Sequence record: OZ035789.1
Direction: 5' to 3' (one strand)
Source: Tequatrovirus BCH953P4
Length of the DNA: 64,000 bases
The stretch's first letter is position 1. Each line of letters starts with the position of its first letter. The notes under the pieces are model-generated. The model ran no database searches. It saw only the letters and a list, made by a program, of their open reading frames with translations, and had not been told where the DNA came from. Shown here piece after piece: positions 15,946 to 61,735 of the stretch. The translations under genes were made by a program, and so were the position numbers.

Positions 15946-17818
15946 ATTGCCATTTTCCCTTTAATTGCTGGATGCGATTCATAATTTTCAAGGATAAAAT
16001 CTTTCGGTTTCATGTATTCAGTTAACCAGTAAAGCTGTGTTTCGGTGTCACAATTTCCAAACTCTATAGGCCAATCAATTTTAAGTTCACATAGTTCTTT
16101 AGGCTCACGACGTAAAATTTCTTTACATTGCTCAGTATGATTCATATAGATGTGAGTATTACCGCCAGAAAATATCAAATCTCCCGGAATAAGATTACAC
16201 ATCTTAGCTACAATATGAACTAACGCAGCGTATGATGCAATATTGAACGGTAGCATTATGTTCAGATAAGGTCGTTAATCTTACCCCGGAATTATATCCA
16301 GCTGCATGTCACCATGCAGATCAGACTATATCTCCAACTTGTTAAAGCAAGTTGTCTATCGTTTCGAGTCACTTGACCCTACTCCCCAAAGGGATAGTCG
16401 TTAGGCATTTATGTAGAACCAATTCCATTTATCAGATTTTACACGATAAGTAACTAATCCAGACGAAATTTTAAAATGTCTAGCTGCATCTGCTGCACAA
16501 TCAAAAATAACCCCATCACATGAAATCTTTTTAATATTACTAGGCTTTTTACCTTTCATCTTTTCTGATATTTTAGATTTAGTTATGTCTGAATGCTTAT
16601 GATTAAAGAATGAATTATTTTCACCTGAACGATTTCTGCATTTACTACAAGTATAAGCAGAAGTTTGTATGCGAACACCGCACTTACAAAACTTATGGGT
16701 TTCTGGATTCCAACGCCCGTTTTTACTTCCGGGTTTACTGTAAAGAGCTTTCCGACCATCAGGTCCAAGTTTAAGCATCTTAGCTTTAACAGTTTCAGAA
16801 CGTTTCTTAATAATTTCTTCTTTTAATGGATGCGTAGAACATGTATCACCAAACGTTGCATCAGCAATATTGTATCCATTAATTTTAGAATTAAGCTCTT
16901 TAATCCAAAAATTTTCTCGTTCAATAATCAAATCTTTCTCATATGGAATTTCTTCCAAAATAGAACATTCAAACACATTACCATGTTTGTTAAAAGACCT
17001 CTGAAGTTTTATAGAAGAATGGCATCCTTTTTCTAAATCTTTAAAATGCCTCTTCCATCTCTTTTCAAAATCTTTAGCACTTCCTACATATACTTTATTG
17101 TTTAAAGTATTTTTAATCTGATAAATTCCGCTTTTCATAAATACCTCTTTAAATATAGAAGTATTTATTAAAGGGCAGTCCTACAATTTAGCACGGGATT
17201 GTCTACTAGAGAGGTTCCCCGTTTAGATAGATTACAAGTATAAGTCACCTTATACTCAGGCCTCAATTAACCCAAGAAAACATCTACTGATCGTTGATAC
17301 CATTGTAAATCAAGATAACCATTACGCACATTAAATTGATAGAACATATGACAAGGTGGTAATGCCATCTGCTTGAGTTCAGCTGGATTCCATGCTGAAA
17401 CAATTTGACGCCTATCATTTGGCAGTTTTTTAATGCGATCAATAACTTCTATAATTTGGTCTACACCGCCAAAATCACGCCATTGTTTTCCATAAATTGG
17501 ACCAAGTTCACCACTATGGTATCCTAAATCTTTTGCTTGATTTTCGTAATTTTCATCCCAGACTGTTTTGCCTTGGATTAACGAATCATGCTGAATTAAT
17601 CGTAAATCATTGACATTTGTGCTTCCTGATAAAAACCATATTAACTCAGAAATGCAAGCTTTCCAGGCGAGCTTTTTAGTTGTTACTGCAGGAAAACCTT
17701 TGGTTAAATCCCAACGCAATTTAGTACCGAACAAAGCAATTGTTCCTGTGCCTGTTCGGTCATCAGTTTCATAACCATTTTCAAAAATGTCTTTAATTAA
17801 ATCTTGGTATTGTTTCAT
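15942..17818 (-). CDS. td: thymidylate synthase, split by a group I intron (exon 1 17270..17818, exon 2 15942..16253)
   Basis: Exon 1 ORF of 183 codons ends ..TTGGGT then in-frame TAA; intron begins TAATTGAGGCCTGAGTATAAGGTGACTTATAC and ends ..AACATAATG before CTACCG; 183+103 codons = 286 aa. Confidence 0.9.
16254..17269 (-). mobile_element. td group I self-splicing intron (1016 nt) carrying the I-TevI ORF
   Basis: Canonical td intron 5' and 3' boundary sequences read directly; length 1016 nt using ORF-track coordinates. Confidence 0.85.
16401..17138 (-). CDS. I-TevI: I-TevI GIY-YIG intron homing endonuclease
   Basis: 245-aa ORF inside the td intron; N-terminal GIYQIKN..VYVGSA GIY-YIG motif; Zn finger CKCG..CSKC. 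Confidence 0.9.
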   Translation of the reverse strand: MKSGIYQIKNTLNNKVYVGSAKDFEKRWKRHFKDLEKGCHSSIKLQRSFNKHGNVFECSILEEIPYEKDLIIERENFWIKELNSKINGYNIADATFGDTCSTHPLKEEIIKKRSETVKAKMLKLGPDGRKALYSKPGSKNGRWNPETHKFCKCGVRIQTSAYTCSKCRNRSGENNSFFNHKHSDITKSKISEKMKGKKPSNIKKISCDGVIFDCAADAARHFKISSGLVTYRVKSDKWNWFYINA

Positions 17819-17859
17819 TTAGTACCTTATATAAATTATAATACATTTTATGAAGCTAA

Positions 17860-18219
17860 TTAATATGGTTTAGCAACAAATTTTCTCTCAATTTCAGGTG
17901 TGAAATATAATTCTTTACCGCGTTTGGAAAAACGACCAATAATATGATAATTATTCTCATCAAACGTGATATTACCAATATCCATAGCTTTCAACCAAAT
18001 ATCGATATTTCTATCCAGCTTTATGTCAAAATTCCAATACGGAGAACTATTACCGAAAATACTGCAAGCGGATTCAGTGAAACAACTGCTATAAATCTTG
18101 TCTTTAGGAACTATTAATTGATAGACACCTTTAATAAACTGAGGACCCTGCCACTTTGGCTGTTTCGCGTCTTTTTCTAATAAAATAGGGTAATAATTAA
18201 AATTCATATTTTCCGCCAC
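17860..18219 (-). CDS. hypothetical protein (115-119 aa) lying between frd and td
   Basis: ORF track (GTG start at 18219; ATG at ~18207); no recognisable motif; AT-rich. Confidence 0.55.
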   Translation of the reverse strand: MAENMNFNYYPILLEKDAKQPKWQGPQFIKGVYQLIVPKDKIYSSCFTESACSIFGNSSPYWNFDIKLDRNIDIWLKAMDIGNITFDENNYHIIGRFSKRGKELYFTPEIERKFVAKPY

Positions 18220-33652: not shown

Positions 33653-34309
33653 ATGGCAGCACCTAGAATATCATTTTCGCCCTCTGATATTCTGTTTGGT
33701 GTTCTAGATCGCTTGTTCAAAGATAACGCTACCGGGAAAGTTCTTGCTTCTCGGGTAGCTGTCGTAATTCTTTTGTTTATAATGGCGATTGTTTGGTATA
33801 GGGGAGATAGTTTCTTTGAGTACTACAAGCAATCAAAGTATGAAACATACAGTGAAATTATTGAAAAGGAAAGAAATGCACGCTTTGAATCTGTCGCCCT
33901 GGAACAACTCCAGATAGTTCATATATCATCTGAGGCAGACTTTAGTGCGGTGTATTCTTTCCGCCCTAAAAACTTAAACTATTTTGTTGATATTATAGCA
34001 TATGAAGGAAAATTACCTTCAACAATAAGTGAAAAATCACTTGGAGGATATCCCGTTGATAAAACTATGGATGAATATGCAGTTCATTTAAACGGACGTC
34101 ATTATTATTCCAACTCAAAATTTGCTTTTTTACCAACTAAAAAGCCTACTCCCGAAATAAACTACATGTACAGTTGTCCATATTTTAATTTGGATAATAT
34201 CTATGCTGGAACGATAACCATGTACTGGTATAGAAATGATCATATAAGTAATGACCGCCTTGAATCAATATGTGCTCAGGCGGCCAGAATATTAGGAAGG
34301 GCTAAATAA
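33653..34309 (+). CDS. t: holin
   Basis: 218-aa ORF matching T4 holin T (single TM segment VAVVILLFIMAIVWY, large periplasmic domain); SD AGGAGGG. Confidence 0.95.
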   Translation: MAAPRISFSPSDILFGVLDRLFKDNATGKVLASRVAVVILLFIMAIVWYRGDSFFEYYKQSKYETYSEIIEKERNARFESVALEQLQIVHISSEADFSAVYSFRPKNLNYFVDIIAYEGKLPSTISEKSLGGYPVDKTMDEYAVHLNGRHYYSNSKFAFLPTKKPTPEINYMYSCPYFNLDNIYAGTITMYWYRNDHISNDRLESICAQAARILGRAK

Positions 34310-58239: not shown

Positions 58240-59579
<1,340 letters not shown>

Positions 59580-59602
59580 TATATCATCCTCAGCAATTTA
59601 TT

Positions 59603-59635
59603 TTATAATACCATAACAAGCTGAGAAAGTAAACA
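59603..59635 (-). promoter_or_regulatory. early promoter for the nuclease-like ORF and dam
   Basis: GTTTAC, 17-nt spacer, GTATTATAA, 25-nt leader to the ATG. Confidence 0.55.
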
Positions 59636-59678
59636 AATTTATGAAATTTGTGATAAATATTAATTTAAAGGAGGACAT

Positions 59679-59879
59679 ATGGTACAAAAATTAATGGCAC
59701 TTGTTAATGCCATAAAAGGTAATAAAAAACGTATAGCTTTTACTATTTCTGCTATGGTAGGAATTTTACTCTGGAACTTTATTTTATCACCAATTGCAAT
59801 TGCGCATGGTGTTAATATTCCAGTAGTTACTCTTGATACATTCGTAGATCTAGCATTTGCTTTAGTTGGGTTAATTTAA
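59679..59879 (+). CDS. small two-TM membrane protein (66 aa) on the opposite strand
   Basis: ORF track; strong SD AAGGAGGA 7 nt upstream; two hydrophobic segments; converges on gene 61 stop. Confidence 0.45.
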   Translation: MVQKLMALVNAIKGNKKRIAFTISAMVGILLWNFILSPIAIAHGVNIPVVTLDTFVDLAFALVGLI

Positions 59880-60904
59880 ATCTTGGCATATTTAGATAGC
59901 CGCATTTTAGCCATCAACCCCTGGGCAATATTATTTTTCATATATTCCATAATTTGTTCAGGGGTTGCACCTTCCTTTCTAATCATATCATTGACATCTT
60001 TTGATTTCCAGGGAGATTTATCCCAAAACATAACCCTTTCTCCTGCATCAACTAATTTAGTCATTCGTTTGATAGTGTCAGGGTGACGAGGTTCATTATC
60101 TAAAACCCACACTCGTCTATCTTTAAATGGAACAACTTCTAGGTCTAATTGACCACCCGTAATAGCTATACCATTTTCAATAAAAAGTGAATCTATAGGT
60201 CCTTCTAGAACATATACATCACCATCTTTAACTCGTTCGACTCCATATATTTTTGTTGCCTCAGGATAAGCTTTGATGGTGATATATTTTTGAGGAGCAT
60301 CTTTCTTTAATGCACGTCCTTGAAAAGACTCAGCTTTTCCATTAGCATTATAAATTGGAATAACAAGACGAGGCTCAGAAATTTCCTTTTTGTATGTTCC
60401 CGGTGCTATGCTATTAACTAATTTAGGCCATTCGGTTGTAAACCAAAGATATTTCCATTTATCCTTTGGAATACAACGAGCTTTTACATATTTTATAATT
60501 GGATGGTCTTCCGCCAGTTTATCTAATCTAACACATGACGGAAGAGATTTAATTATTTTCTTCTCAGGTTGTTTAGGAAGTTCTTTAGGTTTTTCTACTG
60601 GACGACTTTTACCTTTTTCTTTTCTTATTTCAAAGATATACTCACGATATAAATCAGGTTCAAACTCCTTTAAATATATTCCGATTGGTGCATGATAGTT
60701 ACAGTTATAACAGTGAATATTTCCTTCATTATTATCGCCATAATACCATCCACGGGCTTTATTTTGGTCGGTTTTTGAATCTCCACAAACAGGGCATCTA
60801 AACCGCAATTTAAAAGTTGAACTATTATTTACTTGTGTGAATTTAGGTAAATGAGCTAATGCACGGTATGCAAACTCATTATCAATCCAAGGTATTGATG
60901 ACAT
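59876..60904 (-). CDS. 61: gp61 DNA primase
   Basis: 342-aa ORF; N-terminal zinc ribbon CPVCGDS..CYNC; Toprim region; T4 gp61 length. Confidence 0.95.
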   Translation of the reverse strand: MSSIPWIDNEFAYRALAHLPKFTQVNNSSTFKLRFRCPVCGDSKTDQNKARGWYYGDNNEGNIHCYNCNYHAPIGIYLKEFEPDLYREYIFEIRKEKGKSRPVEKPKELPKQPEKKIIKSLPSCVRLDKLAEDHPIIKYVKARCIPKDKWKYLWFTTEWPKLVNSIAPGTYKKEISEPRLVIPIYNANGKAESFQGRALKKDAPQKYITIKAYPEATKIYGVERVKDGDVYVLEGPIDSLFIENGIAITGGQLDLEVVPFKDRRVWVLDNEPRHPDTIKRMTKLVDAGERVMFWDKSPWKSKDVNDMIRKEGATPEQIMEYMKNNIAQGLMAKMRLSKYAKI

Positions 60905-61441: not shown

Positions 61442-61735
61442 TTACTCACCTACCACTTCAGCGATGATATTTTTGTTATTAAAGTTTTTATCGCAATACA
61501 GAACATAATTATACTGCATTACACCACCAGACTTAAGCTGTTTTTGCACTTCAGCTTTCATTTCAGGACGATCGCGCTCAACGATATTCATAATATCTGC
61601 TTCAATTTGGGTTTCAACCTCAGTCTGATCTGCAGTCATAGACCATTCACATAAATCTTTATCATAGCCTGCCATAGCAGGCTGAGCAGCACAAGAAGCT
61701 AAAGCAAAAATTGTAGCAAAGATAAATTTTTTCAT
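61442..61735 (-). CDS. sp: Spackle periplasmic superinfection-exclusion protein
   Basis: 97-aa ORF with cleavable signal peptide MKKFIFATIFALASCAAQPAMA; T4 Sp size and position. Confidence 0.8.
   Translation of the reverse strand: MKKFIFATIFALASCAAQPAMAGYDKDLCEWSMTADQTEVETQIEADIMNIVERDRPEMKAEVQKQLKSGGVMQYNYVLYCDKNFNNKNIIAEVVGE

Follow-up and report, generated by a model that had tools for sequence, protein, structure and literature searches.

A conserved opposite-strand ORF beside the primase gene of Tequatrovirus BCH953P4: a probable late membrane protein gene omitted from the T4 reference annotation

Gene content and signals of the locus

The stretch of DNA analysed here (the window) comprises 64,000 nucleotides of Tequatrovirus BCH953P4 (sequence record OZ035789.1). 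It contains a small open reading frame (ORF) of 66 codons with an ATG start, located at 59679..59879 on the plus strand, next to gene 61. The genes in this part of the window run in the order soc, 56 (dCTPase), dam, a 186-aa ORF, the small ORF, 61 (primase), 61.1, 61.2 and sp. This order agrees with the T4 map at approximately 15-20 kb, and Tequatrovirus genomes such as slur03 and Lutter match the region at 99.4% identity. Every gene of the soc-to-sp block is on the minus strand except the small ORF, which is the sole sizeable plus-strand ORF there. Sequence comparison argues that it is a genuine gene, probably expressed late, for a small membrane protein predicted to cross the membrane once.

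The start codon is preceded by a Shine-Dalgarno (SD) sequence, AAGGAGGA (59668..59675, plus strand), which ends 3 nt before the ATG (4 nt counted after GGAGG); in T4 the spacer is 2 nt longer. A GGAGG, AGGAG or GGAG core is found ahead of the ATG in all lineages examined. Further upstream is a late-promoter-type box, GATAAATA (59652..59659, plus strand), a 7/8 variant separated from the ATG by 19 nt, counted from its last A. It is equivalent to promoter positions -13 to -6, and the published position of the box would place the transcription start (+1) at 59665 (approximately 17722 in T4), giving a 14-nt leader. The stop codon (59877-59879) converges on that of gene 61 (59876-59878, minus strand), and the two overlap by 4 nt in the palindrome TTAA (59876..59879, both strands).

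Two minus-strand signals flank or enter the gene. The first is a divergent sigma-70/early-type promoter (59605..59633) with TTTACT, a 17-nt spacer and a TG-extended TATTAT, which would drive the 186-aa ORF and dam; the annotation of phage fPS-65 marks the equivalent site as a 'predicted early promoter'. The second is a terminator-like hairpin with a T-run (59694..59713) within the 5' end of the small ORF. No other terminator-like site was found in 59300-60300, and this one is the likely terminator of the gene 61 transcript; fPS-65 also has an annotated terminator at the equivalent position. Because this hairpin lies inside the small ORF, the ORF would correspond to a 3' tail of approximately 180 nt on the primase message. 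When both strands of 59000-60400 were compared with Rfam, nothing beyond a noise-level miRNA match appeared.

A first-pass annotation of this DNA had described a lone opposite-strand ORF of 66 codons, a 7/8 late-type box about 20 nt upstream and a stop codon converging on that of gene 61. All of these are present as described. The near-perfect SD sequence that it reported is also there, at a shorter spacing than the 7 nt given. The early promoter of the 186-aa ORF had been thought to overlap the upstream region; it instead adjoins the late-type box, about 19 bp away.

Conservation of the small ORF as a coding gene

Taken by itself, the length of the small ORF carries no significance: the ORF list of the window also has frames of 67 and 101 aa that are antisense to gene 61 and lie inside it. 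Conservation, rather than length, is taken here as the decisive evidence. Presence was counted by a tblastn search of the small ORF over phage records, with gp61 at >=95% identity as a yardstick. The search gave 691 positive phage records, in 685 of which the ORF is nearly full-length or intact. Of these, 501 match at >=90% identity and approximately 190 at 44-56% identity. The yardstick gives 500 records for gp61, and hence essentially every Tequatrovirus has the small ORF. When a distant family member was used as the query, 183 records were recovered, some of which overlap with the 190 or so of the first search.

The frame is intact across the Tequatroviruses, and also in sister genera at 22-55% identity, which goes against the refuting condition named in the first-pass annotation, a frame not conserved in relatives. 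Comparisons between genera give a Nei-Gojobori dN/dS of 0.15-0.4, and dS is saturated. Differences at the three codon positions stand at approximately 30/12/40, with position 2 the most conserved (chi-square p = 3e-4 to 6e-4), and all five other frames contain stop codons. Among the eight distinct Tequatrovirus alleles there are 14 synonymous-only variable sites, and seven in codons with an amino-acid change. These patterns indicate that the small ORF is a genuine protein-coding gene under purifying selection.

The gene is omitted from the reference annotations of T4 and T2. The T4 orthologue lies at 17738..17938 (plus strand) of NC_000866.4, where it is unannotated, and differs from the window protein by two amino acids. 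It is likewise present and unannotated in the T2 records LC348380 (16642..16839, plus strand) and NC_054931, and in phage SP18 (NC_014595.1; from position 1459 of the locus analysed, L020, plus strand). Most newer Tequatrovirus submissions annotate it as 'hypothetical' or 'putative membrane protein', and in RB14 it is RB32ORF030w. Many GenBank records thus already carry this ORF as hypothetical, whereas the T4 and T2 references omit it.

Family, distribution and synteny

The window protein belongs to PHROG 2024, a family without an assigned function (E 1.5e-31, 109 bits; residues 2-66 on positions 1-65 of the 65-position profile). Positional orthologues at 22-55% identity are found in Mosigvirus, Gaprivervirus, Karamvirus, Jiaodavirus and Kanagawavirus and on metagenomic T4-like contigs. 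The closer of these, at 44-56% identity, are in Mosigvirus (ST0), Gaprivervirus (TH40, TH57 and SP18) and Yersinia phage P8 (vB_YenM_P8; YenP8). In ST0, the Gapriverviruses and P8 the small ORF again has the opposite orientation and separates the gene 56 side from the primase gene.

The family is narrow, since an exhaustive profile search over 1.84 billion cluster representatives gave only eight matches. Four of them are distant (P0077-P0080; 60-68 aa, 22-28% identity, E 4e-5 to 4e-4) and share the core motif WN[FY]x3PxAxx[HY]Gx3P. Three of these four are on recognisable T4-like contigs, each as a lone opposite-strand gene flanked by the dCTPase side and the primase gene; the fourth, P0077, is on a contig of 745 bp, too short to identify neighbours. 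Used as tblastn queries, these distant members lead to Jiaodavirus (PKO111 and many Klebsiella phages), Karamvirus (CkP1) and Kanagawavirus (KLB31) with the same synteny, and P0080 as the query matches back to the Tequatrovirus ORFs. The distant branch (P0077-P0080 with Karamvirus, Jiaodavirus and Kanagawavirus) is thus linked to the rest via profile search and synteny. A search for related loci with the family alignment gave ten IMG/VR loci.

The 4-nt overlap of stop codons is also found in T4, ST0, CkP1 and KLB31 and in the loci L012, L013/L014/L015 and L016. It is absent in Gaprivervirus, YenP8 and PKO111. In L013/L014/L015, which are metagenomic T4-like loci, a 124-aa minus-strand ORF (4204-4578 in L013) lies between the small ORF and the primase gene, and the stop of the small ORF overlaps that of the 124-aa ORF, not that of the primase. 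In YenP8 (L005, 2209-3047) a homing-endonuclease gene has been inserted between the two. The 33-codon ORF that accompanies it is annotated, implausibly, as 'DNA packaging ATPase', and several other product names in the record of this phage look mis-assigned.

On its other side, the left neighbour of the small ORF is neither dam nor the 186-aa ORF in the sampled loci of Mosigvirus, Gaprivervirus, Karamvirus, Jiaodavirus and Kanagawavirus. In Klebsiella phage PKO111 (L017, 1-1409, minus strand) this neighbour is a long hypothetical coding sequence of >469 aa, cut at the locus edge; in the sampled genera other than that of PKO111 it is a short accessory gene.

No small ORF was found beside the primase gene in Winklervirus CHI14, Biquartavirus (Aeromonas phage 31.2), Krischvirus (kaaroe) or the unclassified Klebsiella phage RCIP0006. 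Their loci have either no room or same-strand genes at this position. On this distribution, the small ORF is best described as a clade-specific accessory gene of the T-even clade, and not as part of the T4 core.

Predicted membrane protein

The small protein is most likely a single-pass (bitopic) inner-membrane protein. The AlphaFold2 (AF2) model, built from a 19-sequence alignment, has a mean predicted local distance difference test score (pLDDT) of 75.5 and three helices (residues 2-12, 16-42 and 52-63). The predicted transmembrane (TM) helix is IAFTISAMVGILLWNFILSPIAIA (codons 19-42; 59733..59804, plus strand), within the AF2 helix 16-42, for which pLDDT is approximately 80. The hydrophobicity sum agrees: the best 19-mer scores +0.4 kcal/mol on a crude Hessa-type scale, and there is one TM-grade segment (19-37/42). 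The charges of the flanks are +5/0 on the N-terminal side and 0/-2 on the C-terminal side. This basic N-terminus and acidic C-tail suggest an N-in/C-out topology.

A second TM helix at the C-terminus (residues approximately 48-66) was considered and rejected. The stretch contains two Asp residues and scores +5.8 to +15.8 on the same scale, and the tail of distant homologues scores even worse. Of the two hydrophobic segments noted in the first-pass annotation, the first therefore stands as TM-grade and the second, with its low score, does not.

Conservation is concentrated in a core, WNF-x3-P-x-A-x2-HG-x3-P-x3-L-D (codons 32-53; 59772..59837, plus strand). Among 16 sequences at 22-95% identity, W32, P38 and G44 are invariant, and N33 and P48 are found in >=90%. 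The conservation peak coincides with the outer half of the TM helix and the loop that follows, which argues for a specific interaction at the membrane-periplasm interface.

Database searches did not connect the protein to any characterised family. The window protein and the 16-member alignment gave nothing above noise in Pfam, NCBIfam, PADLOC or the PDB sequences, and no PADLOC model matched the window protein, P0078 or P0080. With the AF2 model as the query, Foldseek found nothing in BFVD but members of the family; it should be noted that a three-helix model of 66 residues is too simple for meaningful fold matches. The hhalign probabilities to T4 Imm (0.4%), RI (0.3%) and RI.1 (0.1%) give no sign of a relationship. 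There is no Lys or Arg after R18, so that the remaining 48 hydrophobic residues form one tryptic peptide. Standard trypsin-based proteomics is ill-suited to its detection.

Late-type promoter and timing of expression

All T4 early and middle transcripts run counterclockwise (PMC2988020). The small ORF is on the plus (clockwise) strand, a polarity incompatible with early or middle transcription. T4-type late genes carry a TATAAATA-type box just upstream, and GATAAATA matches it at seven of eight positions. The T4 late-promoter box occupies -13 to -6 relative to +1, and most of the T4-like phages examined show little conservation at position -13 (PMC1524935). The 50 late-promoter sites listed for T4 include single-deviation variants; late promoters with variant boxes support transcription in vitro, and for some of them RNA 5' ends that fit are known from infected cells in vivo (PMC2988020). 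A differential RNA sequencing (dRNA-seq) preprint on T4 gives 150 transcription start sites (TSSs), 22 of them antisense (bioRxiv 10.1101/2024.04.04.588121).

The box is conserved beyond the Tequatroviruses. A box of the form [A/C/G]ATAAATA, with the ATAAATA core kept, stands 14-33 nt before the ATG in 14 of the 15 informative distinct upstream sequences, from at least six genera with diverged flanks. Its first base is G in the T4-type sequences, L008 and L013, C in Gaprivervirus, KLB31, L012 and L016, and A in Mosigvirus, PKO111 and the IsaacDaniel type.

Such boxes are not frequent in the window. VATAAATA is depleted (8 occurrences against 27 +/- 5 expected from dinucleotide shuffles, of which 100/100 had >=8), and TATAAATA occurs 7 times against 9.9 expected. 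The depletion of the late core is consistent with selection against stray late promoters in a mostly early region. The window has 15 NATAAATA boxes, and an SD sequence and an ORF follow five of them. One of these five ORFs is the small ORF; the other four, by their sequences, are presumably gp36, holin t, soc and I-TevI. The distance from box to ORF is 30 nt for soc, 17 nt for t, 23 nt for gp36 and 23 nt for I-TevI, which has the AATAAATA variant.

A gp55-type late promoter is the best reading of the box, and the small ORF is thus probably expressed late. The proposal of the first-pass annotation, a genuinely expressed small membrane protein that is possibly late, is supported by purifying selection, the conserved SD sequence, the late-type box and one predicted TM helix. 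The first base of the box departs from the consensus T in every box-bearing sequence, which could mean a promoter kept weak on purpose; since the lineages do not count as independent, the significance of this shared deviation is uncertain.

Elsewhere in the window, the I-TevI-like ORF (245 aa, GIY-YIG; 17138..16401, minus strand) has its AATAAATA box at 17169-17162, which is another late-type box with a base other than T at -13. A late promoter of I-TevI is mentioned in the literature (PMC3014915).

Neighbouring nuclease-like gene and the T4 deletion

The 186-aa ORF (59019..59579, minus strand; PHROG 8706) adjoins dam and is predicted to have a PD-(D/E)xK restriction-endonuclease fold, on the basis of weak profile matches and AF2/Foldseek. 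The profile matches are to PADLOC REase_II (E 9e-5) and to Pfam DpnII (E 0.0045, below the cut-off). The AF2 model has a pLDDT of 79, and its top Foldseek matches in the PDB are mostly PD-(D/E)xK nucleases, with MunI the best global match (TMq 0.59). DpnII-type enzymes target GATC, which is also the Dam site. The dam gene and the 186-aa ORF may therefore be a phage-borne pair resembling a restriction-modification system. The ORF is found in approximately 152-162 phage records, including T2, and in about 30% of Tequatroviruses; six Klebsiella-phage records, e.g. KPV15, carry a homologue.

T4 has lost most of this gene. A 548-bp segment of the window (59099..59646, both strands), which lies between direct repeats of TTTGTGAT, is absent from T4, where the deletion point is at approximately 17703/17704 of NC_000866.4. 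Most of the 186-aa gene and the early promoter are gone, and a 3' remnant of about 20 codons is retained in the dam-61 'intergenic' region. The right edge of the segment is just before the GATAAATA box, so that the deletion abuts but spares the box, and the SD sequence and small ORF are kept; the sparing of the box also counts in favour of late expression.

It had been suggested that the small ORF could work with this nuclease-like gene, with their co-occurrence across genomes as a check. They were not found to be coupled. The partnership does not survive the comparison of distributions (501 records against approximately 152-162) or the case of T4, which lost the nuclease and kept the small ORF. 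The small ORF is thus independent of the 186-aa gene.

Interpretation and alternatives

The reading that is probably correct is that the small ORF is an accessory late gene of the T-even clade whose single-pass inner-membrane product binds a partner at the membrane interface. A variant late promoter of its own, [G/C/A]ATAAATA, would drive clockwise transcription; RNA polymerase with gp55/gp33 would read this promoter and the gp45 clamp would activate it. The transcript would begin a few nucleotides ahead of a strong SD sequence. Since the ORF is antisense to the 3' tail of gene 61, early and middle transcription of the primase message across the gene should oppose premature expression, and the protein would be confined to late infection. 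The product would be a bitopic inner-membrane protein of 60-69 aa with a basic, amphipathic N-terminal helix on the cytoplasmic side, a TM helix whose outer half and following loop bear WN[FY]x3PxAxx[HY]Gx3P, and a periplasmic or interfacial tail of about 20 residues at the end. The position of the motif at the membrane-periplasm interface makes binding of a specific membrane partner likelier than hole formation. Late promoter activity, membrane topology and antisense gating are each deduced from such features. As to the role of the protein, a tentative guess is that it modulates an event at the envelope late in infection, such as the timing or inhibition of lysis or the integrity of the membrane.

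Several points weigh against this reading. In CkP1, TATTAAATA takes the place of the box. In all 14 sequences that have a box, its first base is G, C or A and never the consensus T; G or C at this position is an uncommon late-promoter variant. The box and the ATG are separated by as little as 14-16 nt in some lineages, so that the leader would be 8-10 nt. The topology is drawn from charge bias and a crude hydrophobicity sum. The absence of the gene from Winklervirus, Krischvirus, Biquartavirus and RCIP0006 shows that the basic T4-type cycle can do without it. No specific link to lysis emerged, and homology to Imm, RI, RI.1 or any holin family was not found. No publication on the small ORF was found in the literature on T4 ribosome profiling, small proteins or TSS mapping.

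Other explanations start from the transcripts and neighbours rather than from the protein. The frame could be a chance ORF in the 3' untranslated region of the primase message that is kept by minus-strand signals. ORFs of similar length do arise by chance in an AT-rich genome, the minus-strand terminator-like hairpin lies inside the frame, and the T4 and T2 RefSeq records do not annotate it. However, this is very improbable given a frame that stays open at 22-55% identity with saturated synonymous change, a conserved SD sequence and start, and a hairpin seen only in Tequatrovirus sequence. A function as the immunity or membrane partner of the dam-linked nuclease-like ORF can hardly be credited either. 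The genes are adjacent, with back-to-back promoters, in the window and approximately 150 other genomes, but in about 70% of Tequatroviruses, T4 among them, the small ORF stands without the nuclease gene, neither this gene nor dam is beside it in any of the loci sampled from other genera, and the predicted timing differs, the nuclease gene having an early promoter and the small ORF a late box. More could be said for a late antisense RNA as the main product, running into gene 61 and silencing leftover early messages of the primase and dam region, with the ORF secondary. The stops overlap by 4 nt with no intergenic space in most lineages examined, and there is no plus-strand terminator-like site within 420 nt downstream, so that late RNA may run antisense into gene 61. 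Such an effect of the RNA could operate alongside the protein, yet it leaves the conservation at the protein level unexplained: purifying selection acts on the amino acids, the strong SD sequence is conserved, and the ORF persists apart from the primase gene, at a distance of approximately 100 nt in Gaprivervirus and 19 nt in PKO111 and across a homing-endonuclease gene in YenP8. As the main explanation it is quite unlikely.

If the protein is the product, it might itself permeabilise the inner membrane as a holin or pinholin-type lysis protein. It is small, with a TM helix and a late-type promoter, and the orthologue in phage OE5505 is labelled 'Holin' in UniProt. That label is an unreviewed and unsupported annotation, however, and no holin Pfam family matched (the best, GTA_holin_3TM, gave E 0.1 with 1/16 members). 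The protein has one TM-grade helix and a hydrophobic C-terminus (..AFALVGLI), not the typical charged cytoplasmic tail, and its gene is not near the endolysin or spanin genes, in a window where the canonical holin t (33653..34309) has a consensus late box. A holin is thus unlikely. Unlikely, too, though less so, is a membrane-level defence or counter-defence protein that acts late against superinfecting or competing phages or neutralises host membrane-acting abortive infection. The gene is accessory and lineage-restricted to enterobacterial T-evens, the region is rich in variable accessory genes (dam, the nuclease, homing endonucleases and sp), and the conserved interface motif suggests a specific partner. 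Against this, no PADLOC model matched and there is no similarity to Imm; the known exclusion proteins Imm and Sp are early and encoded on the other strand; and within Tequatrovirus the gene is near-universal and of low variability, unlike typical arms-race genes.

The accessory late membrane protein remains the preferred reading. A bolder form of it, which must be considered speculative and is improbable as a whole, is that the T4 reference lacks a conserved late gene whose product is an unrecognised late envelope component of the T-evens, e.g. one that joins in modulating holin T and lysis inhibition as a third factor, or one that protects against membrane-acting host defence, kept late by a deliberately sub-consensus gp55 promoter together with occlusion by the antisense primase message. 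If a role in lysis control or membrane defence is true, the gene would be an extra player in one of the oldest phage phenotypes. Otherwise, it offers a clean and testable case of a late gene antisense within an early replication-gene block; it is also one more conserved hypothetical small membrane protein among the many T4 ORFs without a function. The omission has a practical side. T4 serves this phage group as its reference organism, and gene lists for transcriptomic, proteomic and CRISPR interference (CRISPRi) screens are taken from its RefSeq record; a gene omitted there will be systematically missed, even one that essentially all Tequatroviruses and five sister genera carry.

Comparison with known systems

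The layout of the small ORF resembles that of T4 late genes in which a gp55-type promoter abuts the ribosome-binding site (e, soc, t and I-TevI). These have the same arrangement of 8-bp box, short leader, SD sequence and ORF. The small ORF differs from them in the first base of its box, which is G at -13 (C or A in other genera) and never T, and in that its promoter is a predicted one.

The T4 holin T, the antiholin RI and RI.1 likewise function as infection ends, at the inner membrane or in the periplasm, and t has a consensus late box in the window. The small protein has no sequence relationship with RI or RI.1 (hhalign probability <1%). RI is secreted to the periplasm and T carries a large domain there, whereas the small protein has only about 24 residues beyond the membrane.

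Imm and Sp are also small envelope proteins of T-even phages, and sp is approximately 2 kb away in the same block (61442..61735). They are encoded on the early (minus) strand, in contrast to the small ORF, which is predicted to be late and has no similarity to Imm.

Type I toxins of the Ldr, Hok and TisB class are, like the small ORF product, short hydrophobic single-helix peptides whose genes are fully overlapped by a convergent antisense transcript; at the small ORF this transcript could gate expression. However, the match to Ldr is at noise level (E 0.1, 1/16 members), the antisense RNA at this locus is the tail of the primase mRNA, and the conserved Pro/Gly/His interface motif of the small protein is unlike these toxins.

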